From a virus, in the IMG/VR virus record IMGVR_UViG_3300024054_000269, positions 32,001-96,000 of that record: 64,000 nt of DNA; one strand, written 5' to 3'. The notes under the pieces were generated by a model, which saw only the letters and a list, made by a program, of their open reading frames with translations, searched no databases and was not told the DNA's origin. Below, piece by piece: positions 4,238-63,362 of the stretch. Made by a program: the position numbers and the translations under genes. Each line of letters opens with the position of its first letter. The stretch's first letter is position 1.

Positions 4238-4238
4238 A

Positions 4239-4255
4239 TTGAGGTCCAACCTCAA
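4239..4255. terminator. Short hairpin TTGAGG-TCCAA-CCTCAA just after the endonuclease stop
   Basis: 6-bp perfect stem with 5-nt loop; no + strand U-tract, so a terminator role is uncertain. Confidence 0.3.
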
Positions 4256-4331
4256 AAACATATACATAAACTAGTAATTTTCAATAAACACATACGTAGA
4301 CACAAATGGCTTCTGTGAAAGAGGTTAGACC

Positions 4332-7300
4332 ATGGCGATTGGACCGTTTACCACGTATGCCCCACCAGGTGTATATACCAGAACTTTAACTGAACCTTCT
4401 TCAGCCCAACTTCTTGGCGGTCTCAGAGTTCCTACCCTAATTGGAACTGCCCAAGAGTCTTTATCTCAAGATAACGTTGAGATAATTCGAGGTTCAAGCA
4501 GCGTTGCTGACACCGCCATCTTCAATGAAGATGTGTCTGGGCGTTGGGTGACAGGCGGTACTAATGTCAACCCAACTCTTGGAAATCAAGATGGGTCTTT
4601 AGCAAAGTTTCGTGTTAGAAACTATCCGATTGTTGATGGAAATGGTACTGGAACAGCTACTTTTGAAGCCAGCAAAGTATCTGTAACAGTCAATAACCAA
4701 CCGGTTACTGTTTCATCTGTTGACGGTCAGAACGGGATAGTAACACTTTTACTACCAACCGAGATAACTGATGTTGTTTTGGTTTCGTATTATTTCAAAC
4801 GTACAGACACACGTATCACTGATGATCTGAGTGACCAAGTTACTGATGGTCTTGCCATCTTAATTGCTACTAAGGCACAAACTTATGAAGTAATATCAGG
4901 AACGAGTGATACCTTAGAAGTATTTGTAAATGATAGCGCTTCGGCTTCTATCATAACATTTGTTGCTGGGGCTACTAAAACCGCAGCTGAAGTTGCTAAC
5001 GAAGTCAACTCAGCTGCAATTTCTGGTTTGTCAGCGTCAATACATATTGATAACCAGGGATTTAGCCATGTTCAACTTGTTGCTACAGGAAATGTTCGTA
5101 TAGGTTCTGGTAATGCCAACGGTGCCCTTGGCTATAACGCCGGTGATTACACAAACCGCAATAAAGATTTTCGTGTTTTCAACGGCCCAATTGTTGACGG
5201 CTCAAACGGTGGTATAACAACTACAGATCCGTCAAAGGTAATAGCCAAAGTTGATGGTGTAACTGTGTCTGTTAGCGTTGTTGATGGTGCTAACAGCTTA
5301 GTTACATTAGCAGCTGCTCCTGCTAGCGGTACAACGGTTGAAATAACATACTATTTCAACACATATCAAGACACCTTTGATTATTTGCCAAACAATAATA
5401 TACTTGAGGTTGGGAATGTTGGTATAGCACCAGGAAGACGTGATTATTTAAATGGTCCGGATTTTATTGTTATAAATCAAGGTGATCAGTCTGTAATCCA
5501 ATGGGGAACGGCTTTTCAAGTCAATTCTGGTGTTACAACCGGAGGTTCAACGTTTGACAGCACACAGGTTCTTGGTTTGTTGGTAGACAACAGAATTTAT
5601 GCTACTGAATGTACAAGATATACTGATCCAACGACAAATCAGGTATCAACCACTGAATGGGTTCTTCCACTAAAGCCGACGACCGGTAACGGACGCGATA
5701 CGCCGCTCGGTCTAAGTCTATATCAGACTGTTTCGAATGGTCGTATAGACCTTCCAACTAATAGACCTGACCTCGTCATTGCGTATGTTGGTAAAAACAT
5801 TCGTGATGCCTTGGCTAAGGCACCTGTTACGGTTCTGTCTGTTGATTCGTCAAATAACAGAATCAAACTTAAGGAACCTGTTCCGGCCGACTATGTTGTG
5901 TTTGCCACATTCTGGTACAACACAATCCAGGATGATAATTACACTCTGAAAGTTGTTATTCCGGGACCGTCTGGCACGGGCGTGTACACTGTTGAATCAG
6001 AAATTCAACAGGCTGCTCTGTTTAATATCAGATTCGGAACTAAGTCTGCTTTGCCACAGACTGTTCAATTCCCAAGTGGGTCGCAGAGCAATCCAGATGC
6101 AATCCATTATGGTGGCAACCCGGTTGCAGAAACAGTTACCGTAACGTTCTCAACTGAAACCGCCACTCATGCTGATTTCACAAATGCTCTGGCAGAGCCA
6201 TATGACATTTACGCTGCGTTTAGTGCGTTTGCTGACGTGGTGATTGATGGTGTATCAGTTAACGCAGGCGCTGGCGTTGATATGGCGACGGCTTTCCCAG
6301 CAACACTGGTTAGCCAGCCGGTTTCTTCCCCAACGTTGTTAGCATTTGATTCAACTGATCGTTTGGCCTTTGAGATAGATGGCTACACGTATGGATCAGT
6401 TGACATCAGCGCTCTCACAACGTTGGCCACAGTTGCTACGGCTATCAACCAGCGAACGGTGATTGATTTAGCTAACGATTTGAAAGCACTTTATAACGCC
6501 CACTTGACTCAAACCGGCATTCATTTGGTGAACGACACGACGAACCCGGCGACGTCACCTGATGCAACAACATTAGCCACTGCCATAACGCTGATCAACG
6601 AAATTAGAACTGATTATAACGCCCACCGTACACAGGCTGGCGTCCATGTAAACGATGATACGGTAAACGTTGTAACTTCAGCGGCTGCTGTCACGTTAGC
6701 TGATGCTATCACACTGTCGAATGAAATCAAATTAGACTTCAATGCTCATTTGAGTGAGTTCAGTGTTGCAACCACTGGAAACGTTCATATAATTGATGAT
6801 ACGACCAATTTGGTTGATACACCGGATTCTGGATTGGTTGCGTCAACTATAACCTACGGAACAGAAGCTCTGTTGAAAGTTGAGAGTCTAACAACTCCAG
6901 CAACTTTCCAAGATCTGTCAAAGGTTGTTGTTCGAGTCCCGGTTGGATCGGGTGAAACTGATGCATCCGATAAGGTTGGGTTTGAACCAAACCTGACTGC
7001 CTATGGTTACATAAACTCGTTGAATAAACCGGCGGTTTCTGTTAGTGGAAATTCCGGGTCATTCAATATCACATCGGCTGTAAATGACACGTTCAAGTTC
7101 AATTTGGACGGAACTGATTACACTGTGGTGCTTCCACAGAGCACGGTAACAACTGTTGACGCATTGGTCGCACATATCAATGCTGGAGTTGCAAGTGCTG
7201 CAGATATAGCAACCGCAACGGCTGCATTGGTAACGCTGGCTGGCGAACTCGATACGGACTACGCTGCCCACAGAGCGTCTGCAGTGTTCCATACTGCCGC

Positions 7301-9329
7301 TGACGTTGTTAACACAACTGCAACTGTTCCAGTTTCACTTGCAACGTCAATTACGTTCCTGAATGAGCTGAAGACAGCATTTAACGCGCACCGTGTTTAT
7401 GCTGTTTCGCACCCAGTTTTGGACACTTTGGATGTTGTTACTTCGCCAAGTGCCACGGACCTGCCAAGCGCTATTGTCTTGGCCAATGAGTTGAAGGCCA
7501 GATATAATTATCACCTTCAAGTCGAAATGTCTGGCGGCAACGTACACGTTGCTGACGACTTGGTTAACGATGTAACTTCGGCTTCTGTTGTTTTTGCCAC
7601 ACCGGTTGCATACGTCGGAACGAGCCAATACTCTGGCAAGCTTGCCTTGAGATCGTTGATAAACACAGTTGATTCTCTCATAACTGTGTCATCCGGAAAT
7701 GCAAACTCAACGCTCGGATTTACGAATAACTCAAGTTCGTTCAGAACGCAGGCCGACGCTGGCTCAATAGCGTCGGCTTTGAACGCCGACGCTGGATTTG
7801 CAGCTTCAGCTGTTGCGTATAGAATTGTTCAAACTGGTTTGGGCGGATTCTTGAATATCAGGAGTCTGACGGCCGGCTCTACTTCGACGATTGCATTCGG
7901 AACTGCTACTGGTACGATATTCTTTGATGACACTGGAATTGGTATTGAAATTGGTGTAAGCGGAGACACTGGAGAAGCTGCTCAAAGCGGTTACACTGTA
8001 ACATCGTCTGACGCTGTTAATGGTTCATCAGGTGAAGGTCTTCCGGGTCAGACCTATACCGACGCCAGAACCGGTCTCAGGTTCACTGTTTTGCCGGCTT
8101 CAGCAGGTGATTACGCATCAGGTGGTTCATTTACCTTCAATATAACGTCGACATTCACAACTAACGGTTCCATACCGACCCGAGCCATACCTGGGTTGGA
8201 AATGACCGTTTTGAATACGAACGGCATGGGAGTTGATACAACTGCTATCCTGAGCACGTATGCGCGCGGTGGGGCTGAGCCGGCTATCGGTGACGTTTAT
8301 GACGTCTCGTACAAGTATGCCAAGACGGACTTGTCAACGGCTTTGTTCCGAGATCTGAAGAAGATTCAGACAAATTTCGGTCCTCCTACGCCAGAGTTCC
8401 CGTTAAGCTTGGCCGCCCGTTTGGCCTTGTTAAATGGTTCTGTGTTGGTTGGTCTAAAGCAAGTCCTTAGGATCCCAGGACAAGGTCAGGCTTCGGCAAC
8501 GTCATACGCTGCTGCAATTGATGAACAGAAAAAGCCGATGCCTGGAAACGTAAAACCTGACGTCATAGTTCCATTGACTAGCGACACAACGGTTTTTGCG
8601 TATTTGAATCAACATTGCATCTTCATGGGTTCGCCTCGTCAAGAAGGCGAACGCATAGGAGTTGTTGGTACTGCCGTCGGTACAACACCACTTGGTGTTC
8701 AGTCGATTGCCAGGGGCTTGGCTTCCGAACTTATGGTGGTTATGTACCCAGATTCATATGTGATAACGGTCACAGATTCTCAAGGCAATCAAGTTGATCA
8801 GGTCATTGATGGTTCCTACGCAGCTGCTGCAATGGCTGGTAGCGCAACATCACCAGCACTTGATGTTGCTACCCCATGGACTCGAAGAGTTCTGCTTGGG
8901 TTTAAGCGTCTCGGAAGGATTCTTGATCCAACTGAAGCAAATCAGACAGCAGTTTCCGGCGTGACAGTTATTGAGCAGGTTGACGCTGGTCTCAGGATTC
9001 GCCAAGGTTTGACAACGAATCTAGCAACTGTGATAACCCGTACGCCAAGCGTTATCACGACAATCCATTACGTTCAGCAGACAATGCGAGCAGTTTTGGA
9101 TCCATACATTGGTCAGAAATTCACTGGAGCCATCATTAAGTCTGTCGAAGATAAGATGCGTGGTGGCTTCCAGAACATGATAGACGGTGAGATCGTAGCC
9201 AAGGTGGCTGAGATTAACGCACAATCTGATGAGGTAGACCCAACAATTCTAAGAAGTGAAGCTGTATACGTACCGGTCTTTCCGCTCGAGTATATTGTGA
9301 CTACTCTCAGTATAAGAGTACGCATTTGA
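4332..9329 (+). CDS. Contractile tail sheath protein, unusually large (1665 aa)
   Basis: N-terminal YAPPGVYTRT; C-terminal sheath core (SYAAAAMAG...PWTRRVLLGF...EANQTAVSGVTVIE...LRIRQGLTT...YIGQKF...YVPVFPLEYI); SD-like GAGGT upstream. Confidence 0.9.
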   Translation: MAIGPFTTYAPPGVYTRTLTEPSSAQLLGGLRVPTLIGTAQESLSQDNVEIIRGSSSVADTAIFNEDVSGRWVTGGTNVNPTLGNQDGSLAKFRVRNYPIVDGNGTGTATFEASKVSVTVNNQPVTVSSVDGQNGIVTLLLPTEITDVVLVSYYFKRTDTRITDDLSDQVTDGLAILIATKAQTYEVISGTSDTLEVFVNDSASASIITFVAGATKTAAEVANEVNSAAISGLSASIHIDNQGFSHVQLVATGNVRIGSGNANGALGYNAGDYTNRNKDFRVFNGPIVDGSNGGITTTDPSKVIAKVDGVTVSVSVVDGANSLVTLAAAPASGTTVEITYYFNTYQDTFDYLPNNNILEVGNVGIAPGRRDYLNGPDFIVINQGDQSVIQWGTAFQVNSGVTTGGSTFDSTQVLGLLVDNRIYATECTRYTDPTTNQVSTTEWVLPLKPTTGNGRDTPLGLSLYQTVSNGRIDLPTNRPDLVIAYVGKNIRDALAKAPVTVLSVDSSNNRIKLKEPVPADYVVFATFWYNTIQDDNYTLKVVIPGPSGTGVYTVESEIQQAALFNIRFGTKSALPQTVQFPSGSQSNPDAIHYGGNPVAETVTVTFSTETATHADFTNALAEPYDIYAAFSAFADVVIDGVSVNAGAGVDMATAFPATLVSQPVSSPTLLAFDSTDRLAFEIDGYTYGSVDISALTTLATVATAINQRTVIDLANDLKALYNAHLTQTGIHLVNDTTNPATSPDATTLATAITLINEIRTDYNAHRTQAGVHVNDDTVNVVTSAAAVTLADAITLSNEIKLDFNAHLSEFSVATTGNVHIIDDTTNLVDTPDSGLVASTITYGTEALLKVESLTTPATFQDLSKVVVRVPVGSGETDASDKVGFEPNLTAYGYINSLNKPAVSVSGNSGSFNITSAVNDTFKFNLDGTDYTVVLPQSTVTTVDALVAHINAGVASAADIATATAALVTLAGELDTDYAAHRASAVFHTAADVVNTTATVPVSLATSITFLNELKTAFNAHRVYAVSHPVLDTLDVVTSPSATDLPSAIVLANELKARYNYHLQVEMSGGNVHVADDLVNDVTSASVVFATPVAYVGTSQYSGKLALRSLINTVDSLITVSSGNANSTLGFTNNSSSFRTQADAGSIASALNADAGFAASAVAYRIVQTGLGGFLNIRSLTAGSTSTIAFGTATGTIFFDDTGIGIEIGVSGDTGEAAQSGYTVTSSDAVNGSSGEGLPGQTYTDARTGLRFTVLPASAGDYASGGSFTFNITSTFTTNGSIPTRAIPGLEMTVLNTNGMGVDTTAILSTYARGGAEPAIGDVYDVSYKYAKTDLSTALFRDLKKIQTNFGPPTPEFPLSLAARLALLNGSVLVGLKQVLRIPGQGQASATSYAAAIDEQKKPMPGNVKPDVIVPLTSDTTVFAYLNQHCIFMGSPRQEGERIGVVGTAVGTTPLGVQSIARGLASELMVVMYPDSYVITVTDSQGNQVDQVIDGSYAAAAMAGSATSPALDVATPWTRRVLLGFKRLGRILDPTEANQTAVSGVTVIEQVDAGLRIRQGLTTNLATVITRTPSVITTIHYVQQTMRAVLDPYIGQKFTGAIIKSVEDKMRGGFQNMIDGEIVAKVAEINAQSDEVDPTILRSEAVYVPVFPLEYIVTTLSIRVRI
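6459..6821 (+). repeat. His-pair repeat triad 1 in sheath
   Basis: LANDLKALYNAHLTQTGIH / LINEIRTDYNAHRTQAGVH / LSNEIKLDFNAH...NVH. Confidence 0.9.
7215..7586 (+). repeat. His-pair repeat triad 2 in sheath
   Basis: LAGELDTDYAAHRASAVFH / LNELKTAFNAHRVYAVSH / LANELKARYNYH...NVH. Confidence 0.9.
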
Positions 9330-9341
9330 CGCATTGCGTCA
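9327..9341. promoter_or_regulatory. Dyad TGACGCA-T-TGCGTCA overlapping the sheath stop codon
   Basis: Perfect 7-bp inverted repeat with 1-nt spacer; operator-like geometry; function unknown. Confidence 0.35.
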
Positions 9342-9365
9342 TAATTTATTGATGTACCTTATAGC

Positions 9366-11021
9366 ATGTTGGATGTTGAAAAATATTCAATCTTGACTGA
9401 TAGTGGAAACAAAAAAATTATATTTAAATGTGAATTTTGTTCAAACAAATTTGAAACATTGTACAAGACTTTCTTACGTAGCAAACATGGTGCTTGTATC
9501 AAATGTAGATCATTAGCATCTGCATATTCACAAACCAATTCATCTAAAAATAAACATGAATTTTATCTTGAAAGAAGAAAAAACATAAATAAAAATCTGT
9601 TTAATATTGAAGCTACTATTGAAAAATTTGGTTATTCACCATTAGATCTGGTTAATGGTTCTAAGAAAAGAATAATAGCTAAATGTGAATTTTGTTTATT
9701 AGATTTCGAAACTCAATTTGACGTAATCAATAACGAATCAAATTTAATTGCTTGCAAAAAATGTGACGCTATTGCGTCTTCATATTCCAGGTCTAAAAGC
9801 ATTGAAAACAAACATGAATTTTATTTATCAAAAAGACCGAAATTAAACATTGATTGTCTTGATATTGAGGCTACAATTGAAAAATTTAATTATTCACCAC
9901 TGGATTTAAGCACATATTCTGCGAAAATTATAGTGGCTAAATGCGCATATTGTAGCAAAAAACTTGAAATTAGAATGTCTAAATATTCGCTTCGCGAAGG
10001 AAGGATTACGTGTTGGGGGTGTATGAGGAAAAAGACTGTCGAAACGCTAAAATTGAAATATGGTGTTGAATGCACATTGCAAATACCATCTGTTCTTAGC
10101 AAATTATCTAACCCAAAAACCGAGCAAATAGTCGAATCAGTGTTGAAAACTAGGTATAAATTAGATTATGTTCGCAATCATTCTATTGGTATTTATTCTT
10201 TTGATTTTTTCGTACCAAGTTGCAATTTGTTAATTGAATGTCATGGCGATTATTTTCATGACTTCAAAAAATTTGGTTATAGCGGGACACCAAAAGACAG
10301 AGCTAAGTCAACCTATGTTGAAAAATACACAAATCATAAATTAATTTGGGTTTATGAGCATGAAATTCACATAGGTAGAATCAATAAAATATTAGATTAT
10401 CATATACATAAGATTCTTGAACCACAATTGAATGTTGATTTGAAATATATAGAATTTAAACAAATAAATAACAAAGACGCACATACATTTTTATCTCAAT
10501 ATCATTACATTGGCAATCTCGGAACTGTTGCGACTTCGTTTGGAGCATTTTTCGGCGAAGTATTGATTGCTGTGTGTGTTTTTGGTGGTATTACACGTCA
10601 TCAATCAATTAAAAAGATTAACAAATTCTGTTCAACATCTTTTGGTCCAAAAGATGTTAGGGAATTAAGAAGATTTTGTATTAAACCGAACATCATTACT
10701 AAAAATATGGCAAGTTTCTGTTTGAAAAAATTTATTGATTTATATAATGATTACAATTCAAACATTAAAGCAATAATAAGCTTTTCAGATCCAACTGTAG
10801 GAGACATAGGAACTATATACAAAGCTTCAAATTGGAAACAAATGTCAGATTCAATCAAATCATATCATTATGTAGATCCAAAAACTAATCGTCAGATTCA
10901 TAAAAAGACAGTGTGGGACATGGCTAAAAGCAATCATATGAAAGAACAAGACTTTGTAAATAGTTGTGGATTGATAAAGGTTGTGGAATTGCCAAAAAAT
11001 GTCTGGCTGAAATTATTTTAG
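9366..11021 (+). CDS. Hef-like endonuclease: Zn-finger repeats + PD-(D/E)XK + Mom-like GNAT domain (copy 2, divergent)
   Basis: 86-aa CxxC repeats; FDFFVPSCNLLIECHGDYFH nuclease motif; FLSQYHYIG...ELRRFC...IISFSDPTVGDIGTIYKASNW Mom-like motifs. Confidence 0.75.
   Translation: MLDVEKYSILTDSGNKKIIFKCEFCSNKFETLYKTFLRSKHGACIKCRSLASAYSQTNSSKNKHEFYLERRKNINKNLFNIEATIEKFGYSPLDLVNGSKKRIIAKCEFCLLDFETQFDVINNESNLIACKKCDAIASSYSRSKSIENKHEFYLSKRPKLNIDCLDIEATIEKFNYSPLDLSTYSAKIIVAKCAYCSKKLEIRMSKYSLREGRITCWGCMRKKTVETLKLKYGVECTLQIPSVLSKLSNPKTEQIVESVLKTRYKLDYVRNHSIGIYSFDFFVPSCNLLIECHGDYFHDFKKFGYSGTPKDRAKSTYVEKYTNHKLIWVYEHEIHIGRINKILDYHIHKILEPQLNVDLKYIEFKQINNKDAHTFLSQYHYIGNLGTVATSFGAFFGEVLIAVCVFGGITRHQSIKKINKFCSTSFGPKDVRELRRFCIKPNIITKNMASFCLKKFIDLYNDYNSNIKAIISFSDPTVGDIGTIYKASNWKQMSDSIKSYHYVDPKTNRQIHKKTVWDMAKSNHMKEQDFVNSCGLIKVVELPKNVWLKLF
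9552..9960 (+). repeat. Intragenic repeat, 258-bp (86-aa) unit
   Basis: AAACATGAATTTTAT at 9552 and 9810; NKHEFYL...IEATIEKF.YSPLDL...IIAKC..C duplicated. Confidence 0.8.
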
Positions 11022-35739: not shown

Positions 35740-36320
35740 TGGCAATTAATCAAATCACAGTTCTACCAATTGTTACCGGTGCTTTGACGTCCAATGGCAT
35801 AGTTGGAGTATCAATGCCCCAATTAGCATTAGCATTAACAAATGGGCTTGTTCAATATGTTTTGACTGGCATAACAATAACATCTCAGGATGTTGGAACA
35901 GTCGGGTCTGGTGTTGGCACTGGTTTTGGAATTTCTCTTGAAGTTCCAATTTTATTTCAAAATTTTCAAACAACTTTTACAGCTGCTGGCATAAATGGAA
36001 CGCATTCAAGATTAATTATTAACGCAATTTCAACAGCTTATTCATCAGTGTTTAGAATAGCAAATATGGTAACAACTAACGTCGGAGTTGCAGTTGGTAC
36101 TGGTGTTGTATCAGTAATACCAAATACAATAATATCAATTCCAACATATATTGGTAATTTTACTGCTTCACTTTTGCTTGGTATATCAGCACCTGCTTTG
36201 GCAACTGCTATCGCTAAAGGCTTGGATCAATCGTTGCCAACAGCTAAAGGTACTGTCATAATAGCTGGTCCACCTTCATCAACATCATCTACAGGAAATG
36301 GGTTGGGCAAAATTCTATGA
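35739..36320 (+). CDS. Small Gly/Thr-rich baseplate (possible spike-tip-associated) protein
   Basis: Likely start is the TAATG overlap at 35739 (MAINQITV...), not 35682. Confidence 0.65.
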   Translation: MAINQITVLPIVTGALTSNGIVGVSMPQLALALTNGLVQYVLTGITITSQDVGTVGSGVGTGFGISLEVPILFQNFQTTFTAAGINGTHSRLIINAISTAYSSVFRIANMVTTNVGVAVGTGVVSVIPNTIISIPTYIGNFTASLLLGISAPALATAIAKGLDQSLPTAKGTVIIAGPPSSTSSTGNGLGKIL

Positions 36321-52560: not shown

Positions 52561-52962
52561 ATGGTCGAAAAATTAAGCATAACAATTCCAGAATCTGTCA
52601 CTATAGGAAATGTTGGTTCCATATCATTTTATGAATTTATACGATTTCTTTGTTCTAGAGATCAAAGATTTCTTGGGTCGGCAAACAGAGTCAGAATGGG
52701 CGTAAAAATAGAATCTTTGTTTAAAGATAAAGAACCTGGTTCTATTGTTGACGTTGAACAAAGTGATTTTAATTTATTGTTAAAAGTTGCGACAGAACCA
52801 GCATGTGGGTATCCAAGATTAGACATAATAAGACAAAATGGTCAACGTGATACTGTGTTAACTGATAGAGCAATTATGGTATATGTTGAAGCCATTGAAA
52901 ATGCTGAAGTTGCTGAAGTTGCTGAAGTAGAACAAATAGAAAATAACGGAGGCGATGTTTAA
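52561..52962 (+). CDS. Putative tail fibre assembly chaperone
   Basis: Small acidic gene directly after the fibre; synteny only. Confidence 0.45.
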   Translation: MVEKLSITIPESVTIGNVGSISFYEFIRFLCSRDQRFLGSANRVRMGVKIESLFKDKEPGSIVDVEQSDFNLLLKVATEPACGYPRLDIIRQNGQRDTVLTDRAIMVYVEAIENAEVAEVAEVEQIENNGGDV

Positions 52963-55742
52963 TGCCATCCGGCGGATGGGGCGGTTTATTCGGCGGCGGG
53001 CCTTGGGGAGGCTCTGGCGGCGTGCCTGGTGTTGAATTTGTAGCCCATGTTATAAGTTCAACAGAATTGCGTTTAAAATTTGAAGCACGCGTTGAAGACG
53101 ACGGGAATCCGACAGACATAACAAACTACATTTTAGATTCATTTGAGCCATTTGGTACATATTATTTACCTAATATTTTGTCAGTTAAATTCGATGACCC
53201 TGGAAATAGAGCTATAATAATAACCTTCGAAAAATCATTAACTTTGAATAAAACTTACAGAATACAAGCTTTAAATTTGAAGACCGCAATTGGTGGATTA
53301 GACATATCAGGATTACCGCATAGTTTTTTATCAACAGTTCCAGACCCGCCAAGGGCGCTAACATCTCATATTAGTGGCCTTGACACGATAGACATTGTAT
53401 TTGATAGATCAGTTGGTCCAACTTCGTCTTCAGCAACTGCCTCCATAAGACCGTCTGGTTCAACTGGACCTGGAACATTACTAACTTTAGTTCCATATGT
53501 TGCGTCTATTCCTGAAGATCATATCAGATTTACATTAAATCCATTAATGGTATCGGCAAATTCTCATGAAATTGTGTTTTCCGATGTTGTAGATGAATCA
53601 TTAAACGTTGGTACAAATGAAGTTGATTTGAATTTGAAGTTAAGGGCTCCATCACCGTTTGGGTATTCTGAGATAACTCAAGCACAAATCATAGGAGCAA
53701 CTGTAAACAGAGTCAACAACGATTATTTAGTTGGAACTTATTTATTAGTTTATTTTAATGTTCCAATGCTTCCTTCTGATATCACAAATTCTGCAAATTG
53801 GTCAATTTCAACACCAGGTTCTAATGTTATTCCTGATACAAGCAATACACTACTGCTAAATCCTTTAGTAGACCCGCTAGTGAATGTAGCAAATGAATTT
53901 AAAACAAATTTTAATAGTCACATAATTAAAACTGGCATACATGTTACAAAAGAATTTACTAAAAATTTGACGTTTGCTGATTTAGTTGATGAATCAAATC
54001 TCATAACACTTTCGAATGATTTAAAGAGAAAATATGAAGCACATAGAACACAAAGTGGCGTTCATCCATTTGTGTTAACAAGATACAACGATTTGTCTAA
54101 TATAATAACATCCACAGATGCATATGATGTTGCTTCTTCGATAATTTTATTAAATGAAATTAAAACAAAATATAATCTGCATAGAGTAAACACTCTATTT
54201 CATATCGTTGCTGATACAACAAATATCGTAACTGCTGCTAACGCGGTTGACATAACAACGGCGGCGGCTTTGGCTGAACAAATAAAAAATAAACTAAATT
54301 ACCATAGAACTCAATCTGGTGTACACACATCAGATGATACAATAAATGTTGTTACAGCAGTTGATGCAGCATTATTTATAACTTCACCAACGGCAATTGA
54401 TACACAAACATCAATCGATATATGTAATGAAGCACAGAACAAATACTTGGCTCATTTGTCAAAATCTGGTTTTCACGTATTTGAAGATACAATTAATACG
54501 TATATACCACTTGTAGTTAATCCTGGGAATGTCCCGTTAGCCAGGGCAATTTTTGATCAATACCTGTATACTAATTTTAACATACACATAACTGATAGTT
54601 ATCAAGTAACAATAACTAATATAAGAAATGAGAATTTTGTACCATATGATCCATTTTATGACGTAGCAGAAGTTCGTGTTGATGTATTTGATACTAACAC
54701 ACCTTTTAATATCGAAGTAACGGCAAATAATTTGAACAGTTCTAGCATAACAAATCCAGCAAATTATTCTGGGTCTATTGGCATAGATTCTGCTCGTTCT
54801 ATTTCTAATCAATTTACCAGTAATTTAATTTCAAAAAATGAATTCAATATCAGATTTGATAAGAAAACACTTGCAATGAATATTGACCAGTTTGTTTTAA
54901 CTGATCCATCGATGTTAACCACTCCAATTTTATCGATTCAACAACGTTCTTCAGTACCAAACGCATTTTTTATGCTTGATCATTTAGCTGATGTATATGA
55001 AATACACAGAAACGCTGTTATACATTATACACCAGATGTTACAAATATAATAACTACTCTTGATAGACCATATTTGCCAGATTTGCAAATTATTATTAAT
55101 TCATCTAACCTCATAAAGGACATTATTAATGAACATTTTCAATCATCGAGTCATTTTTCACCGGATCAAAACTTAATAACGGCCCCGAATGCAACTGATT
55201 TAGATTCACTAATTGTTTTGTTATCAGACATGGAAACAAAATATTTAGAACACATAAAAAATCATATAGCACATAATGGAGAATCACTAGTTTATTATTC
55301 AACAGGTCTTTTTGATTCAATTTCTGTAGCTTTTCCAGATTTAGTAGACGATGAAGAATACACATTAAATTTTGATGCAACAACATCTGTCGTTGATAAC
55401 GCTGAAAACACAAAATTCGAATCGAATTTGGTTACTTCTGCGTCTTTCTTCGGAGTAACCCAGCCACCAGCCATAGCACCAGCCCTATCAGAAATAGGCA
55501 TTAAACCAACTTATGAAGAAGGAAAATATCTAACACCAGATTCTGTTTTGGGGTTTATTTCAAAACCATTAAGACAGAAAGAATTGACTTCGTCTAATAT
55601 TCAAATACCAAGTGTTATAATTAAAAATTTTACCTGGATAAGTAATAGGAGAATCGCAACGTTTATAACAAACATGCAAAATTCAACTTATAATTTTACT
55701 ATAACTGGCATAACTGATAAAGCTGGAAACGACATCTTGTAA
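52962..55742 (+). CDS. Virion protein with Ig-like domains and His-pair repeats (926 aa)
   Basis: Ig-like strands (ISSTELRLKF...ITNY...IIITFEKSLTLNKTYRI); about 9 His-pair repeats. Confidence 0.7.
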   Translation: MPSGGWGGLFGGGPWGGSGGVPGVEFVAHVISSTELRLKFEARVEDDGNPTDITNYILDSFEPFGTYYLPNILSVKFDDPGNRAIIITFEKSLTLNKTYRIQALNLKTAIGGLDISGLPHSFLSTVPDPPRALTSHISGLDTIDIVFDRSVGPTSSSATASIRPSGSTGPGTLLTLVPYVASIPEDHIRFTLNPLMVSANSHEIVFSDVVDESLNVGTNEVDLNLKLRAPSPFGYSEITQAQIIGATVNRVNNDYLVGTYLLVYFNVPMLPSDITNSANWSISTPGSNVIPDTSNTLLLNPLVDPLVNVANEFKTNFNSHIIKTGIHVTKEFTKNLTFADLVDESNLITLSNDLKRKYEAHRTQSGVHPFVLTRYNDLSNIITSTDAYDVASSIILLNEIKTKYNLHRVNTLFHIVADTTNIVTAANAVDITTAAALAEQIKNKLNYHRTQSGVHTSDDTINVVTAVDAALFITSPTAIDTQTSIDICNEAQNKYLAHLSKSGFHVFEDTINTYIPLVVNPGNVPLARAIFDQYLYTNFNIHITDSYQVTITNIRNENFVPYDPFYDVAEVRVDVFDTNTPFNIEVTANNLNSSSITNPANYSGSIGIDSARSISNQFTSNLISKNEFNIRFDKKTLAMNIDQFVLTDPSMLTTPILSIQQRSSVPNAFFMLDHLADVYEIHRNAVIHYTPDVTNIITTLDRPYLPDLQIIINSSNLIKDIINEHFQSSSHFSPDQNLITAPNATDLDSLIVLLSDMETKYLEHIKNHIAHNGESLVYYSTGLFDSISVAFPDLVDDEEYTLNFDATTSVVDNAENTKFESNLVTSASFFGVTQPPAIAPALSEIGIKPTYEEGKYLTPDSVLGFISKPLRQKELTSSNIQIPSVIIKNFTWISNRRIATFITNMQNSTYNFTITGITDKAGNDIL
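53878..55285 (+). repeat. His-pair repeat blocks: 5 full + 1 partial (53878-~54590) and 3 degenerate (54960-55285)
   Basis: NEFKTNFNSHIIKTGIH, NDLKRKYEAHRTQSGVH, NEIKTKYNLHRVNTLFH, EQIKNKLNYHRTQSGVH, NEAQNKYLAHLSKSGFH; later YEIHRNAVIH, NEHFQSSSH, YLEHIKNHIAH. Confidence 0.85.
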
Positions 55743-58700
55743 TGGGAACTATATCATTTACCGGTTTAAGTTCTGTTTCTGATAGAACTTTGTTTACAAA
55801 CAAAGGTCCTATCGTAAAAAGACCGCTATCACTTCTTTCCGGGTCAGATTTAAGAATTGTTTCGGAAAACGAAATTGAGATATTGTCAGGATCATTTACA
55901 TCATCAAATGTTGGACAAATAATAACAATTTCAGGGAGTTTGAATAATCGAAATGATGGGACTTTCACAATAGATCAAGTAAAAAATTCAACACGTTTAG
56001 TGTTAAAGAATTCGTCGTTTGAACTTATAAACGAAACTGACACGATCGAAAGTATTATTGATTTAGCGAATGATATTCGTAATAAATATGAATTACATAG
56101 AATTCAAGATGAAGTTCACGGATCAAATGATACAACAAATATAATATTCACTGCGATTGCAGTACCAACATTGGCAAATGCAATAATTTTGTTGAATGAT
56201 ATAAAAACTAAATTTAGTGCGCATATAATAGACATATCATCCCCTAGTCCAGGGGAGCCAACAGTCCACTTAGAAGCAGATGTAGAGAATACCGTGTATT
56301 TGCCTGATGCTGATGACTTGGCATCGGCGTTACAACTGGTTAATGAATTAAGAAAGAAATACTCGTTACATAGACAAAGTAACATCTATCATCAAAACGT
56401 TGATTCTGCAAATGCTGTTACAGTTGATAGAGTAATACCAACAGTTGGTACCTATCCGGGTTCTTTAACTGGGCCATTATCTTGGGTATTAAAAAGTCCG
56501 AGAATAGGGGAATTTGCGGACGTTCCGGAAGACGTTGATGTTTATGTTAATTCTACAGATGCTAGTGTTGACGCAGTGTTCGGATTATTAGGAGCTGTGG
56601 TTTTAACTTCAAAACCAACTAGTAGTGATACAGTTGAAATTGATTATGATTATTTAAACAACCCAGCTGTTCTGTTTACTGGTTTAAATTTTCCAGGCTT
56701 CACATTTAATCAAGCTGGCAACCACGGAATTGGGGGCTTGCCAAGCCACAAATACAGAATGCGTGCGTTTTTTATAGACCCAGAAAATCTTCCAAACCCG
56801 CATGGCGTTTCTTCTCCGTTTGCGCCGAGACTTGTTGGTTGGAGATATAAAGGATTTGAAAGGGCGTATACGGCATCTTTAAACGACCCAAATTTATTTA
56901 GACTAAATTCGCCAGCAAACAAAATACTTTTTCCAGTTGAAGAAGACCCAGCATTTGAAACGTCCGTATCATATGATCCAACTAATTTACCACAAAATGT
57001 AACAAATCCTTGGACCTCCAACGGATTTGGAACCGTTTACATATCAGGTAAACGTCTTATTATAATAGATGCCGATGATGGTTCAGGAACTGAGAGTCTG
57101 CCACCGTTTTTTAGCAAAGAAATAAATATTGACCCACCAAGCATCGTTTCAGCAGCTTTTAGAACTGAATTATCAAACGAAGGTCTTTTGCTTGACGGAG
57201 CTTTTACTGGTGTTGGGTTTGGGTTTTCTGATGGTAACAATGTAGCATTAATTGGGTTCATAATAACATCACAACCCGCTACAAACTTATCATCAGCTAT
57301 TTCACTAACAAATGAAATAAAAACCAAATTTAACTCCCATGTAATAGAGCCAACTGTTCATTTTGTTAATGATACACAAAATATTGTAGATCTCGTAAAT
57401 GCTACCAATTTGTCTCAACTATTAATTATTTTGAATTCGTTAAAGGCGGCTTTTAATTCTCATATTGTTAAAGTTCCAGAACATGCGATATCAGATACAA
57501 CTGATTTGGTAACGTCGCCAGACGCAGGCGATCTATATTCTGAAGAAATTTCATTACAACAAGCTATAACATTAGTAAATGAACTACGAGATAAATACAA
57601 TACACATCTGTCTCAAATAATAACATCAACTAATGTCCATCAAGTTAACGATACTATAAACGTTGTTCCGGACGTAAAACAAGTAGGAATTTTAACAAAC
57701 AGGGGACCATGGGAATTCGGAGAAAATTGGAACTCATATGCAATAGATTTCACAGAGACAAAATCATACAGGATAGCACGAAACATAGACGGAGGTGTTT
57801 CGTTATACTTGAGTGGTATGATAGATCCGATTGCGACGGTTGAAGCATCTGAACTACCGTCGATTTCAAATTTGAATGCTAAATTTGATCCTATACAACA
57901 AGTGTTTTTTGGTGCAATTAGTAAAGAGTCAACGTCCACAAGCAGGTGGTCATTTGTAAGAACTGTTATAACACCATTAGACCCAGATAGAATCAGCCGC
58001 AATAAATCCATAGATTATCAAGCATCAGTAACACCAGAACTTGATACAACAGCACCTTGGGTACCTGTAGGATTAAATGGATTTGAGAGAGTAAATAGTG
58101 GAATTTTATTGCTAGATTCAACTGCGTCAGCAAATACAAATGAACTAGATTCATTTGGTTTGAGCAGCGGTGCCTACAGGGGATTTTTAAGATTTGAACC
58201 AACTCAAACTATAAGAACATCGACTGTAATAGAATTTAGGACAAAAATCGACTATTACACATTTGGGATAAACAATAGATCGGCTGGTGTGTATTTAGAT
58301 GATAAGAATCTTCAGGTGCATTTTTCATTTTTGCAATATTCACCGTCAGCTCCAACAACGATTGGTAGATCTGAACTTTATCCGATAATACTTGGTGACA
58401 ATTTGTTGTTGAGGATAAATAACGGACAAATCATAACAATAACATTTGCTGCCACAGATACAACTGCTGCCACAGTTGCAGCCAAAATTAATTCTACCAC
58501 TGGTGTACCATCCGGTTTTGCATCGTCAAGCAGCGGGAAAATTAAACTTACAGGCGTAAATCTTGGTGTAGAGTCATCATTTGAAATTGTTGGCGGTACA
58601 GCTGTTACAAAACTTGGTTTAATTATAGGTAATTATATTGGTTCTGATTCGAACCCAGAGCCAAGAATTTCATATTTTGGTGCCGATTTACCTGATAAGG

Positions 58701-61700
58701 ACAACCCGGTTTGGGTTTCAAGTGGAGAACAAAGAGCCGAATTAATAAACAGGGCGCTTAGAATAACTGATGACAGTGTGACCGATTATCGTTTGTTTGA
58801 TTTGTCAAACATTCTTGTTACTGAGCCTGTACTAAAAGATCCGAATGATTGGAAATTGGACACAAGAATCACAGTTTATTCTTATACGCCTTCTTCTACA
58901 TACATAATTTACGGTTTGTATGTTCCAGTTAAATTTGCCGGTGCATTTATAAATATTGATGAAGGGGTTGGTGGTAAGAACTTAGAACTGCATCTATCTG
59001 TTGATCAGAATGGTAACAAATATGTAACTATTTTGTCGATTATTGCCAGTGCATACATAATAGTTTTTCAAGCACCGTTTAACTGGGATGATGGTCTACC
59101 ACATTCATATAATGTGTATATGAACAAAGCGTCTGGCTTGGTGTTTGTATTAGCTGATGGACAACCTATAAATGATGTTTTATCAGCAACCAATTCATTT
59201 TTGACTTCTGTTTTGAAACCGAGTGTGTCTGGTCCGTCTGTCACATTTGGTTCTGGTAGTATGCCAATCGGTGCAATAGATATAAACACAGCTAAATCAG
59301 TTGTTGATTGGCATTCAGTGGCAGTGTTCAAAGATAGTAAAATAAACGATTCGAATTCTTCTATAAGACGTTATATTGGTTTATATAAAGGTGGAAATGA
59401 GAACGAATTAAGCTCATATTATGTACATCAAATAGATTGGACTTCGTTTCATACATACAGAATAATTAGAAGTCCAGACGATTACGTGTCAATATTCGTT
59501 GATAACAATCCAACGCCTGTTATATCAATTAGTTATGACTCTTTAAGACTTCCATTAGTTAATACGAGTTTCTTGAATGGCATAACCGGTGGAATACCAT
59601 CAATAGCATTTGGATCGTTTAACCCGCAAGAGTTATCAAGAACAGAATGGGACTATGTAAAATATTCGTTGGGCAGAATCATACAAAGAAACAGGCTTGT
59701 GCCAAGGCATCATTTATTAAATTATGCCAATTTGATAACATCACCAGATCACCTTTTCACAAAAGCGCAACACATACATTTTGGTAAAGAAGTCTATTCA
59801 GAAGGAACAGCATCAGAAGAGTTGATAGCTAATGACACAGCTAGCAGTTATACGATTTTAGGAGAAGGAACGCCACCAATTCCAATGACTCAAAATCTTG
59901 AGTCAAGAGGCGGGTTGGTAAAATCAATAACCCAAACTAAGAATATAAACACCGTAGATTTCATTAATTCAAACGGTTTCCCGGCAGCGTTTGAAGACGA
60001 TTCAATAAATGTAATTCTTTCAGAGAATGCCTTTGATTTGTCGACTTCAATAGCATTAGTTAATGAATTAAAATCTAAATTCAATTCACACTTAACTCAG
60101 TATAGAGTCCACGTATCAAATGACAGAATAAATATTGTTGAAATAGACGACGCGTCTGACTTAACAACTGCTATAGACTTAGTAAATTTAATAAAATCAA
60201 AATACGGTTCGCATTTAATTCAATCCGGAATACACACAAACAATGATACAGTAAACATAATAACATTATCTGATGCAACAAATCTTGCCACATTGATAAC
60301 TTTGGTTAATGAAATTAAAATTAAATATGAATCGCATAGGATGCCAATAGTTGCGTTTGCAAATGATTTAAAGTCTAAATTCAATTCTCATCTCACACAA
60401 ACTGGCGTCCATGTTGTAAACGGAACAACTACCGTAACAACACAAGACGCAGCTGATCAATTGTCTGCGTTCGTCTTAATAAACGACGTTAGACAGAAAT
60501 ACAATGAACATTTAGTTGAGATTGGTGTTCACATAACTAATGACACTATAAATTCTTCAATTCTTCCACCTGTAACAAATTTCTCGTCAGCTTTAGCGCT
60601 AGTTAATGAGGTTAATTCAAAATACGATTTACACAGGGCTGACTTAACTTATCATTTGGTTGCTGATACAATCAATATAAATACATATTTCATATCATTA
60701 CTGTTAATACCTGACGTTCATTTGTCAACAGTAATAATAAGACTTGATCCGCCTTCAAGGGTTTTGTACGAAGCCATGAAATTTTACACATTTGCAGAGG
60801 GCGATGTTGGACATTTATTTCCATTTTCAGATGATGAAACACTCCATGTTCATGGCATTTCTTATGCTGGATCTCATTCTTTCTCATATGAAGGTTCTGT
60901 TTTACCGGAAGACGCTGCTGAATTTGCTGTTATAAACTTGGCAAATGACTTGAAATCGAAGTACAACTTACACAGATCACAATTTGGCGTTCATATGAAT
61001 GATGACATATTAAATGTCGTCACAGCTCCAAATTCAACTGACCTATCTTCTGCTATTACATTATTAAATGATATAAAAACCAACTATAATTTGCATTTGA
61101 TAACTGGAAGTGTTCACACAACGAATGACAATGAAAATAAAGCTATAAACATTAATGCAACAGAGTTGTATACGGCTCTTTCATTAGTTAATGAATTAAA
61201 GTCAAGATATGAAGCACACATAGATAGCATAGTTTACCACGTGTCAGTCGACACAACTAACGAAATATCAGTTGAAGATGCACCACCAGTCGCAGATCAA
61301 GGGTGGTTGTTAACAACTGAAGGACCAGGTTCAGCTTCCATATCATTGATAACAGTTGGTCCAACAACTGCGTTAGAATATGGAGCAGTTGGGTCTATAG
61401 AAACTATATATAAGAATAAGAATCCATTGCCAAGTATTGGTAACCAGAATTTTGAAATGTCATTAAGTCTAAGAATCAATGATGTTTATACGGTCGTCCC
61501 AACTTTCGATTCAAGAATTTATGCTGGTTTTACAAGTAAAATGCATGGCGGAATTGCGGCGGCTATTGGATTTGATTCAATAAATAGCGTTCCATATGTG
61601 AAAATTCATGATATGAATAATGATGAAACTGTGTATCGTGTCCCATTTGATTGGGGCGACGGTAATTTCCATTCATATCGTCTTGTAAGGGACATTAACA

Positions 61701-61732
61701 CAAACACAATAGGCCTCGTAATAGACTCATGA
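55742..61732 (+). CDS. Giant virion protein (1996 aa) with ConA/LamG-like domains and about 15 His-pair repeats
   Basis: Repeated DW...H[ST]Y.[IL].R.......[VL].[VI]D lectin-like motifs; four His-repeat blocks. Confidence 0.7.
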   Translation: MGTISFTGLSSVSDRTLFTNKGPIVKRPLSLLSGSDLRIVSENEIEILSGSFTSSNVGQIITISGSLNNRNDGTFTIDQVKNSTRLVLKNSSFELINETDTIESIIDLANDIRNKYELHRIQDEVHGSNDTTNIIFTAIAVPTLANAIILLNDIKTKFSAHIIDISSPSPGEPTVHLEADVENTVYLPDADDLASALQLVNELRKKYSLHRQSNIYHQNVDSANAVTVDRVIPTVGTYPGSLTGPLSWVLKSPRIGEFADVPEDVDVYVNSTDASVDAVFGLLGAVVLTSKPTSSDTVEIDYDYLNNPAVLFTGLNFPGFTFNQAGNHGIGGLPSHKYRMRAFFIDPENLPNPHGVSSPFAPRLVGWRYKGFERAYTASLNDPNLFRLNSPANKILFPVEEDPAFETSVSYDPTNLPQNVTNPWTSNGFGTVYISGKRLIIIDADDGSGTESLPPFFSKEINIDPPSIVSAAFRTELSNEGLLLDGAFTGVGFGFSDGNNVALIGFIITSQPATNLSSAISLTNEIKTKFNSHVIEPTVHFVNDTQNIVDLVNATNLSQLLIILNSLKAAFNSHIVKVPEHAISDTTDLVTSPDAGDLYSEEISLQQAITLVNELRDKYNTHLSQIITSTNVHQVNDTINVVPDVKQVGILTNRGPWEFGENWNSYAIDFTETKSYRIARNIDGGVSLYLSGMIDPIATVEASELPSISNLNAKFDPIQQVFFGAISKESTSTSRWSFVRTVITPLDPDRISRNKSIDYQASVTPELDTTAPWVPVGLNGFERVNSGILLLDSTASANTNELDSFGLSSGAYRGFLRFEPTQTIRTSTVIEFRTKIDYYTFGINNRSAGVYLDDKNLQVHFSFLQYSPSAPTTIGRSELYPIILGDNLLLRINNGQIITITFAATDTTAATVAAKINSTTGVPSGFASSSSGKIKLTGVNLGVESSFEIVGGTAVTKLGLIIGNYIGSDSNPEPRISYFGADLPDKDNPVWVSSGEQRAELINRALRITDDSVTDYRLFDLSNILVTEPVLKDPNDWKLDTRITVYSYTPSSTYIIYGLYVPVKFAGAFINIDEGVGGKNLELHLSVDQNGNKYVTILSIIASAYIIVFQAPFNWDDGLPHSYNVYMNKASGLVFVLADGQPINDVLSATNSFLTSVLKPSVSGPSVTFGSGSMPIGAIDINTAKSVVDWHSVAVFKDSKINDSNSSIRRYIGLYKGGNENELSSYYVHQIDWTSFHTYRIIRSPDDYVSIFVDNNPTPVISISYDSLRLPLVNTSFLNGITGGIPSIAFGSFNPQELSRTEWDYVKYSLGRIIQRNRLVPRHHLLNYANLITSPDHLFTKAQHIHFGKEVYSEGTASEELIANDTASSYTILGEGTPPIPMTQNLESRGGLVKSITQTKNINTVDFINSNGFPAAFEDDSINVILSENAFDLSTSIALVNELKSKFNSHLTQYRVHVSNDRINIVEIDDASDLTTAIDLVNLIKSKYGSHLIQSGIHTNNDTVNIITLSDATNLATLITLVNEIKIKYESHRMPIVAFANDLKSKFNSHLTQTGVHVVNGTTTVTTQDAADQLSAFVLINDVRQKYNEHLVEIGVHITNDTINSSILPPVTNFSSALALVNEVNSKYDLHRADLTYHLVADTININTYFISLLLIPDVHLSTVIIRLDPPSRVLYEAMKFYTFAEGDVGHLFPFSDDETLHVHGISYAGSHSFSYEGSVLPEDAAEFAVINLANDLKSKYNLHRSQFGVHMNDDILNVVTAPNSTDLSSAITLLNDIKTNYNLHLITGSVHTTNDNENKAININATELYTALSLVNELKSRYEAHIDSIVYHVSVDTTNEISVEDAPPVADQGWLLTTEGPGSASISLITVGPTTALEYGAVGSIETIYKNKNPLPSIGNQNFEMSLSLRINDVYTVVPTFDSRIYAGFTSKMHGGIAAAIGFDSINSVPYVKIHDMNNDETVYRVPFDWGDGNFHSYRLVRDINTNTIGLVIDS
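56051..61278 (+). repeat. His-pair repeat blocks at about 56051-56420 (3), 57278-57673 (3), 60027-60721 (6, one split) and 60926-61278 (3)
   Basis: For example NDIRNKYELHRIQDEVH, NEIKTKFNSHVIEPTVH, NELKSKFNSHLTQYRVH, NDLKSKYNLHRSQFGVH. Confidence 0.9.
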
Positions 61733-62628
61733 ATTTGACTAGATTAACAACTATTTGTAATGATGGTTCCAACATTCTGTTGTTAAATAGCGATTATGAT
61801 AATTATGCAATTAAATTAGATGAATCATTTAATATAATCTCGAAGATCAAATTAAAAAACACCGTTGCAAGCGGATCACTACCGTTTTTTTCTATCAAAG
61901 ACAACACCGGGGTTTGGTTTTCTGACTTAGCATCAAGTCGTGTGTTCAAAATTATTAATGATGAAATCTCAATTTCACTTCAAATTGGCCAAGGTGGTAT
62001 TTTAGGAATAGCTACAACTCCTGATTATTTGTTTGTCGCTGAATTGGGACAAAATGGTATAACAAGAATTGGTTTGTCTGATACAGATAATAGGATTACA
62101 ACTGGCATACAAGCTCAACTTATAAAATTTGATGAATCATCTGGACTTATGTGGTTTGTAGATGCAAACACAAAATCAATTGGCGTCATTGACCCGAATG
62201 ATAAATTTGGATTTTCGTCTATTATTTATTCTATTGAATTAGAAACAACTAATATTTTTGATTTTGTAATACTTGACGCTGAAGTTTGGGTAACAACATC
62301 AAATGGTGTTGTAATAATAAACAAAGCTGAAAGAAGAGTAAACTCACAAATTTTTTTGTCAAAGTCTCAAATATGTTATTTTTCTGGTAACCATAACATT
62401 ATACATAACAGCAATAATAAAGTGTACATATCATTACCACACATTAAATCTTTAGCTGTAATAAATACAGCCACGAAATCTGTAGAAATCATAAATGTTG
62501 GTTTTAACATTGATTTAATCCATTTGTTTAATGGCAAAATATTTGCACTCGATCCATATGCCGATGTTGTGTTAAAACTAGATAGCAATGCTGGTCTTTT
62601 GATGAGTTCTGTGATAGAGGTTGGTTGA
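61729..62628 (+). CDS. Putative beta-propeller (Vgb/YVTN-like) protein
   Basis: About 40-aa blades: GVWFSD, LFVAE, LMWFVD, VWVT, VYIS, IFALD. Confidence 0.6.
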   Translation: MNLTRLTTICNDGSNILLLNSDYDNYAIKLDESFNIISKIKLKNTVASGSLPFFSIKDNTGVWFSDLASSRVFKIINDEISISLQIGQGGILGIATTPDYLFVAELGQNGITRIGLSDTDNRITTGIQAQLIKFDESSGLMWFVDANTKSIGVIDPNDKFGFSSIIYSIELETTNIFDFVILDAEVWVTTSNGVVIINKAERRVNSQIFLSKSQICYFSGNHNIIHNSNNKVYISLPHIKSLAVINTATKSVEIINVGFNIDLIHLFNGKIFALDPYADVVLKLDSNAGLLMSSVIEVG

Positions 62629-63362
62629 TGCCTCTTCCAATATTCATAACCCCAATATATCAAACACCAACCGGTGTTGTTCTTGGGCGTGTACCAATTT
62701 CGAGATTTTCTGGTCAACCAATTTCTGGACTGTTGACGCCAGTTACATCGGGGTTGGTCTTTTTTTCACCAGTTTTGCTCGAACAATTACCAAATAATGA
62801 AATAGACTTAGATTATATTAGGGTGGTTGTAAATTCGAATGATGTTTATACACCTCCGGTTGTAGAAAATTCAAGATTGTTCACATTTGGGCCAAATAGT
62901 AGTTCAAGAACGAATCAACCAAAATGGAGAACCCAACCAAAGGAGTATACAGCTATTGGCGGATTGGTTGATGAGACTTTGTTAATTACACTTGCAAATG
63001 ATTTAAGAGCTCAATATGAAGCTCATAGAGCATCAGCTGTATTCCATGTAATAGCTGATGGAATCAATACAATAACATCTCCGGCGGCCGTAAGCTTGGC
63101 AACAGCAACTACGCTTTTGAATGAGTTAAAATTGAAATTTGATCTGCACAGAACACAACCTGGCGTTCATTCAACTGATGATGTAATTGATGAAATATTA
63201 ACGGCAAATGCAGACGGTAACCCATTACCGGCTGCGTTTCTTGCAAATGAATTGAAACTGAAATATAATGTGCATAGAACTGCACCATTAATTCACGTTG
63301 TGAATGATGGCATAAACATAGTGACTGCAGCTGATCCGTCAGTTATAAGTAAACTAATATAG
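62625..63362 (+). CDS. Virion-region protein with a C-terminal His-pair repeat triad (245 aa)
   Basis: NDLRAQYEAHRASAVFH / NELKLKFDLHRTQPGVH / NELKLKYNVHRTAPLIH at about 62979-63338. Confidence 0.75.
   Translation: MMPLPIFITPIYQTPTGVVLGRVPISRFSGQPISGLLTPVTSGLVFFSPVLLEQLPNNEIDLDYIRVVVNSNDVYTPPVVENSRLFTFGPNSSSRTNQPKWRTQPKEYTAIGGLVDETLLITLANDLRAQYEAHRASAVFHVIADGINTITSPAAVSLATATTLLNELKLKFDLHRTQPGVHSTDDVIDEILTANADGNPLPAAFLANELKLKYNVHRTAPLIHVVNDGINIVTAADPSVISKLI

Follow-up and report, generated by a model that had tools for sequence, protein, structure and literature searches.

We analysed a 64,000-nt window (positions 32,001 to 96,000) of the IMG/VR virus record IMGVR_UViG_3300024054_000269, a 182-kb piece of a virus genome, and describe here P0001, a protein of 1665 amino acids (aa) encoded by one long open reading frame (ORF) of that window. 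Judged by its sequence relatives, P0001 of this uncultured huge phage is a contractile tail sheath. The middle part of the protein holds two segments, here called triads, each built of three 41-residue repeats, together with a small host domain that recurs along the protein; a triad interrupts two copies of this domain and is absent from two others (Table 1). We put at roughly 85% the probability that the whole is explained by a sheath with an optional helical module of three repeats nested in a repeated accessory domain.

Table 1. Predicted features of the sheath gene and of the tail region in the window (HMM, hidden Markov model)
Feature	Positions	Strand	Basis
Tail sheath gene P0001	4332..9329	+	one long ORF, 1665 aa
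Host domain copy A, aa 188-272, site empty	4893..5147	+	hhalign to B and C
Host domain copy B, N-terminal part, aa 670-706, two strands and helix ending 'AIN'	6339..6449	+	AlphaFold2 model
Triad 1, aa 707-831, three 41-aa repeats	6450..6824	+	repeat HMM; absent in homolog P0111
Host domain copy B, C-terminal part, aa 832-892	6825..7007	+	strands resume past triad
Host domain copy C, N-terminal part, aa 916-950, helix ending 'HIN'	7077..7181	+	AlphaFold2 model
Triad 2, aa 951-1089	7182..7598	+	hhalign to triad 1; 10 aa in its place in P0111
Host domain copy C, C-terminal part, aa 1090-1132	7599..7727	+	hhalign, AlphaFold2 model, structural match
Putative truncated host-domain copy D, aa 1133-1205, site empty	7728..7946	+	Smith-Waterman alignment to C
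Conserved C-terminal sheath core, aa 1286-1663	8187..9320	+	tblastn to annotated tail sheaths, E 4e-17 to 1e-10
Tape-measure-like gene	22272-25838		Pfam PhageMin_Tail, 31.5 bits, slightly under cut-off
Baseplate_J gene	46126-49587		Pfam, 34.4 bits, over cut-off
926-aa tail-region protein, ~5 canonical repeats and a divergent triad	52962..55742	+	repeat HMM, nine-triad profile
1996-aa tail-region protein, five triads in unrelated sequence contexts	55742..61732	+	repeat HMM
245-aa protein, one C-terminal triad	62625..63362	+	repeat HMM

The sheath gene, its repeated domain and the triads

The annotated sheaths of Bacillus phage G, Myrna-like mycobacteriophages and Eggerthella phage LE2-3 match the C-terminal core of P0001 in tblastn searches (E 4e-17 to 9e-7), and the tail sheath of Tunturiibacter phage Tunturi_5 is also among the annotated matches. 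The N-terminal part of P0001 is conserved core too, collinear with other sheaths: aa 7-537 of the Tunturi_5 sheath correspond to aa 8-562 of P0001, and its aa 757-1203 to aa 1235-1663, with 34% identity at both ends. Both ends also align to an unannotated 1665-aa ORF of a 485-kb uncultured phage (LR745208.1), and some close homologs of P0001 have a precomputed Pfam match to Phage_sheath_1C (PF17482). The same strand carries, further downstream, a tape-measure-like gene and one for Baseplate_J, and these mark the region as a tail gene module. The sheath of phage T4, gp18, is 659 aa long, so P0001 is 2.5 times its size, as estimated in the original prediction, which had been made from the sequence alone; the two triads make up ~260 of the ~1000 residues by which P0001 exceeds gp18.

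That prediction described one sub-domain motif recurring four times in P0001, twice with an empty site and twice with a filled one. All of the strings it quoted are found in the + strand ORF in the places given for them: VANEVNSAAISGLSAS (aa 221-236) and VQLVA (aa 247-251) in copy A, VATAINQRT (aa 701-709), PDSGLVAS (aa 831-838) and LKVES (aa 848-852) at site B, LVAHINAGVAS (aa 945-955), PVAY (aa 1091-1094) and LALRS (aa 1104-1108) at site C, and IASALNADAGFAASAVAY (aa 1146-1163) and LNIRS (aa 1174-1178) in copy D. The division into empty (A, D) and filled (B, C) sites within one gene is borne out, and the insert said to be 121 aa long indeed corresponds to the 121 residues between T709 and P831.

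The recurrence itself stands in full for three copies. When the flanks of B and C are joined with the triads cut out, profile comparison by hhalign aligns A with B (E 7.8e-5), A with C (E 1.9e-5) and B with C (E 2.3e-6) in one register over 74-78 columns, a repeat weaker than the match between the triads but real. The fourth copy, D, lacks the first two strands and would thus be a truncated one. Its hhalign comparisons are not significant (E 0.04-0.15); its Smith-Waterman alignment to C runs in register from the helix to the final strand with a z score of 6.0, which none of 500 shuffles reaches, and its alignment to B has a z score of 4.7. These comparisons point to a host domain present in three full copies, with D as a weakly supported fourth.

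The 41-residue units of the triads stand three each at about aa 704-833 and 960-1087. Their consensus reads a-t-D-L-x-s-A-I-x-L-x-N-E-L-K-x-k-Y-N-x-H, followed by at least six variable residues and then by H-x3-D-x2-N-x-V-T. The two triads match one another with a blastp E of 8e-24 (44% identity, plus shifted-register matches) and an hhalign E of 4.9e-41. Conservation over 1578 distinct repeats is 100% for H22 and H29, 98% for D33, 86% for N36 and 84% for L11. Hydrophobic positions 5, 8, 12, 15, 19 and 22 have the 3-4 spacing of heptads, and since this stripe ends on H22, that residue would lie in the core where each helix ends on its C-terminal side; the model puts H29 in a short stretch of bridge-forming residues within the return loop. 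Among homologs of matched architecture the mean pairwise identity is 44-51% in the triads and 74-79% in the core, which makes the triads the least conserved parts of the sheath, and this fits surface exposure.

The triad has no match in Pfam, PHROGs or NCBIfam, a profile search of the PDB gave no E value below 0.7, and the ESM Atlas gave no usable match. No description of a 41-aa repeat of this kind was found in literature searches, with subscription journals outside their coverage. The module, its His-His-Asp signature and its copy-number variation in whole units thus appear undescribed in the libraries and papers searched.

Probable gain and loss of triads among sheath homologs

We compared the best 120 of 760 homologs matched at E <= 1e-3, and counts are given over 121 proteins; repeat arrays were counted by HMM, as an H..H...D regular expression was too imprecise. 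The original prediction proposed a look at relatives for insertion polymorphism, and this is extensive, with 0, 3, 6, 9 or ~12 repeats per sheath. Proteins of 1433-1436 aa have no repeats, those of ~1556 aa have three, those of ~1683 aa six, those of ~1810 aa nine and those of 1927 aa 11-12, and a further class of ~1768 aa has six repeats and an extra segment of ~85 aa. Once the repeats are removed, 97 of the 121 proteins fall within 1420-1449 aa. Arrays in sheaths are multiples of three in 89% of cases.

The clearest view of the insertion sites comes from the triad-free homolog P0111, whose residues 1-703, 728-847 and 858-1431 correspond to residues 1-706, 836-950 and 1090-1663 of P0001. The flanks are therefore homologous and collinear, and homology ends at N706 and N950, directly after the 'IN' helix both times, which is where the module had been predicted to land. 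A loop of 24 aa stands in P0111 in place of triad 1, and 10 residues stand in place of triad 2.

The two sites differ in how often they are filled. Site C is occupied in ~119 of the 121 proteins, by one, two or three triads in tandem, whereas site B is occupied in only 17, all in one part of the tree built from the conserved core. Repeat number has changed at least 12 times on this tree. Triad-free P0111 and P0114 are nested among filled proteins and for that reason are best read as secondary losses. Site B comes in two arrangements: 14 proteins have kept the old 24-aa loop and have the triad after it, and three, the window protein and the two homologs closest to it, lack this loop, so the site may have been filled on two separate occasions.

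These distributions bear on whether anything was inserted at all. If the triads were ancestral parts of the domain, the empty sites would be secondary deletions; the near-universal filling of site C and the likely losses in P0111 and P0114 speak for such a history. It has to contend with the triad-free state of the paralogous copy A and truncated copy D, of the solved homologous domains (the insertion domain of the phage XM1 sheath and domain D3 of FliD) and of the distant sheaths of LR745208 and Tunturi_5, with the filling of site B in only 17 proteins, which all fall in one region of the tree and show two arrangements, and with the presence of the module in unrelated proteins. A uniformly empty loop in outgroup sheaths with similar insertion domains, which is already largely what is seen, argues the same way. 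We consider an ancestral origin improbable, and the insertion reading of the original prediction is supported, with three qualifications. From the sequence comparisons, only the site-B triad would be a clade-specific gain, and the site-C triad looks ancestral within the clade; the fourth domain copy is truncated and weakly supported; and an outward projection of the triads would follow by likeness to the XM1 insertion domain.

The more distant sheaths of LR745208 and Tunturi_5 have a middle part that cannot be aligned to that of P0001. The LR745208.1 sheath (L001 1438-6435) is also 1665 aa long, and its triad-free middle (aa ~679-1084) is unrelated to the middle of P0001; on this comparison, the centre of giant sheaths such as these two is a replaceable cassette.

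The ~1768-aa sheaths (P0021, P0047, P0056, P0059 and others) have ~85 residues between the first and the second triad. Their second triad groups in a triad tree with the second triad of forms with six repeats in tandem, and the tandem and split arrangements would thus share ancestry. The same tree (FastTree, ~120 columns) places the window's site-B triad beside its own site-C triad, which hints at intragenic duplication at a resolution too low to claim it.

Predicted fold of the host domain and its insert

AlphaFold2 models were built from family alignments for aa 655-905 (m34e3c841d742; predicted local distance difference test score, pLDDT, 91.3; predicted template-modelling score, pTM, 0.89) and for aa 902-1215 (m31ad820ff839; pLDDT 87.5, pTM 0.76). 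Both have two strands and a helix, then three long helices with extended spacers of ~22 residues, then further strands. The modelled triad helices span aa 698-725, 748-765 and 789-807 in copy B and aa 956-981, 1003-1021 and 1044-1063 in copy C; the first of these continues the host helix without a break in copy B and after a two-residue break in copy C. As predicted structures, the models show each triad as a three-helix bundle nested in the host domain, between its helix and the next strand.

We searched both models against 48,161 PDB representatives with VIA-align, and the Z values obtained are in a range that the tool calls middling. Copy B matches residues 98-218 of Vibrio phage XM1 gp6 (PDB 7kh1) with Z 9.6 and root-mean-square deviation (rmsd) 3.1 over 110 aligned residues, and domains D2-D3 of the flagellar cap protein FliD with Z 9.1-9.4; its top matches cover 104-110 residues at rmsd 2.7-3.1. 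Copy C gives FliD with Z 8.3 and XM1 gp6 with Z 7.8, and the two models independently have the same chains among their highest-ranked matches (20-24% identity). The sheaths of E217, A-1(L), PhiTE and Mu, whose outer domains are equivalents of the XM1 insertion domain (InD), appear lower in the list. A Foldseek search of the copy B model against the PDB and BFVD gave no match at E <= 0.001, with only weak rows for FliD and sheaths. The fold may extend to copy A, to judge by profile alignment (E ~1e-5), and to copy D, to judge by single-sequence alignment (z 6.0).

In the alignments to solved domains both flanks are covered and the triad is skipped, with copy B spanning model residues 1..244. 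This bears on a reading in which the triads, instead of sitting inside a loop, would join one separate domain to the next like beads on a string. Such an arrangement would agree with the linear order of the segments and with nothing more; for both triads, the two flanks together superpose on single solved domains, and once the triads are excised the flanks can be aligned with one another and with copy A, which is uninterrupted. We regard beads on a string as extremely unlikely.

The XM1 InD is an accessory domain set into the sheath core as an insertion in its N-terminal domain, resembles FliD D3 and is directed away from the tube (PMC10457771). XM1 has one InD and no nested module, whereas P0001 would have three full copies of the domain and a truncated one, two of them with a helical bundle of 120-140 aa in the helix-to-strand loop. 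The likeness to FliD (5fhy, 5h5w, 6kty; Z 8.3-9.4, ~95-104 aligned residues, 14-22% identity) is one of fold only, as there is no flagellar context here and FliD has no helical insert.

The nesting of accessory domains in sheaths is a known principle. T4 gp18 has a conserved core of N- and C-terminal parts with nested accessory domains. More generally, multi-domain ('type 3') sheaths combine such a core with accessory domains that were inserted successively in a nested fashion and are more numerous in larger phages; most of these domains are Ig-like sandwiches, with helical ones in AR9 and PBS1 (PMC9230969). A His-rich module of 3 x 41 aa and its copy-number polymorphism in whole units are not described in that work.

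In P0001, the N- and C-terminal parts would form the assembly core, and the ~1200 residues between them would be nested accessory domains, among them the small beta-beta-alpha-beta-beta domain of the XM1-InD and FliD D3 kind. The loop between the '..IN' helix and the next strand would house a self-contained triad in two copies of this domain. Each of the three repeats would contribute one helix and one extended return segment, and together they would fold into a single-chain, pseudo-threefold, parallel three-helix bundle. As every repeat has the same helix-plus-return topology, the helices should run parallel, with entry and exit of the chain expected at one end, and with both termini there the module could be dropped into a loop. 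The triad would thus be an optional, portable module, gained and lost in whole units, with 0, 1, 2, 3 or ~4 triads in related sheaths.

Distribution and possible role of the module

A repeat HMM made from the six sheath repeats alone, searched against the ORFs of the window, matches three other ORFs (E 1e-37 to 1e-117) and no further one. The triads of these three proteins have flanks unrelated to the sheath host domain. A profile of nine triads, and only this profile, also finds a divergent extra triad at 54975-55280 in ORF 52962-55742 (E 6e-13).

Searched against 1.84 billion cluster representatives, the nine-triad profile matches 1749 proteins at E <= 1e-3 and 1016 at E <= 1e-10, with lengths of 168-3370 aa. 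We inspected the best 150 of the 1749; one is the known sheath homolog P0021 and 149 are new. Non-triad sequence in common with window ORFs is found in 65 of the new proteins, namely with ORF 55742 (40), ORF 52962 (17), ORF 62625 (4), the sheath (3) and ORF 36317-41566 (1); the remaining 84 have nothing else in common with the window. Little co-occurs with the triads: Pfam finds Phage_sheath_1C twice and Big_5 and SPOR once each in 87 triad-bearing proteins from elsewhere. ORF 36317-41566 (1749 aa) is itself triad-free, and its homolog P0179 (2004 aa, 42% identity over 1259 aa) has six repeats, so the presence/absence polymorphism reaches a fifth family of tail-region proteins.

Several results weigh against parts of the nested-module account. 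A Pfam search of P0001 itself gave no sheath match at E <= 0.1. The triad taken by itself matches only generic helical bundles in VIA-align (Z <= 7), including single-chain parallel designs and gp41-5. That the helices run parallel and that the six His cluster is deduced from repeat topology, secondary structure and heptad phase, and the outward projection of the triads would follow by likeness to the XM1 insertion domain. Outside sheaths, arrays are multiples of three in only 51% of cases, so that the three-repeat unit is predominant, not obligatory.

As for function, triad-free sheaths exist, so the module is not needed for assembly or contraction. The triads would stand out from the tail surface as rapidly evolving knobs, and their most likely role is decoration: they may make stabilising contacts at that surface or adhere weakly to the host envelope. 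Work on accessory sheath domains in general has suggested both, and a cementing role as well (PMC9230969).

If adhesion were their purpose, the triads would be receptor-binding knobs rather than structural struts, with copy number and fast change tuning the binding. They are the fastest-evolving segments of the sheath, and they occur in large proteins encoded just downstream of the Baseplate_J gene, the usual place of fibre and wedge proteins. No lectin, Ig or other binding fold was detected, and the invariant residues look like framework, the same in every context. We hold this possibility to be doubtful. Alternatively, triad-triad or triad-sheath contacts could link tail parts, cementing the long, extended sheath or docking to it the fibre-like proteins that bear triads. 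That one virion has this module both in its sheath and in three more tail-region proteins would suit such contacts, which the triad-free sheaths show not to be essential; we consider this doubtful as well.

The invariant residues of the module invite a further proposal. The six His and three Asp of a triad (His22, His29 and Asp33 of each repeat) may converge at one end of the bundle, where they could form a metal-binding site or a hydrogen-bonded cap that clamps it. Iron sites formed by His-x-His motifs lie on the threefold axis of the trimeric T4 gp37 tip and at the apex of P2 gpV and phi92 gp138. These too have six His from three equivalent units round a threefold axis; they are made of three chains in beta-structures, whereas the triad is one chain in a helical bundle, with a metal only surmised. 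Triads might on this basis be a new domain family, single-chain mimics of a trimeric coiled coil with a hexa-His (plus three Asp) metal end, and a portable plug-in that tunes tail-surface contacts or adhesion, with huge phages inserting, multiplying and deleting them in surface loops of sheath, baseplate-distal and fibre-like proteins. We find this composite proposal possible but unlikely to hold in every part.

The turnover of an accessory domain can be followed stepwise in this one gene family, with the loop empty, filled once, or holding two, three or ~4 modules; a relative wholly without triads and the two arrangements at the second site make visible an origin and turnover that are rarely seen. 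The loop would be a permissive display site on the sheath, useful for engineering decorated tails and sheath nanotubes. The triads also bring together ~1750 clusters (at 50% identity) as a domain family that had no annotation; it has a His-His-Asp signature, is found here in virion tail-region proteins and offers a definite object for studies of structure and metal binding. Knowing it would also help to annotate the structural genes of huge phages, which now match almost nothing.

The surroundings of the sheath gene illustrate this last point. The Baseplate_J and PhageMin_Tail ORFs are the sole ones of recognisable family among the tail-region ORFs scanned with Pfam and PHROGs: Pfam found nothing in this region beyond Baseplate_J and the sub-threshold tape-measure domain, and 17 of the 18 tail-region ORFs scanned with PHROGs had no match, the other matching weakly a family of unknown function. 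No tube gene was identified by any library scanned. The ORFs that flank the sheath gene (2684-4237 and 9366-11021) match HNH/homing-endonuclease PHROGs and a Mom-like DNA-modification PHROG.

A second internal duplication is present in the sheath. Two beta-rich segments of ~65 aa, at aa 92-160 (4605-4811) and aa 280-345 (5169-5366), match each other with an hhalign E of 2e-21 and enclose host domain A; the second has a weak Pfam match to DUF2460. The G+C content of positions 4001-10000, which hold the sheath gene, is 0.41-0.47, against 0.32-0.37 around it, probably as a result of accessory domains rich in Ala, Gly, Thr and Val.

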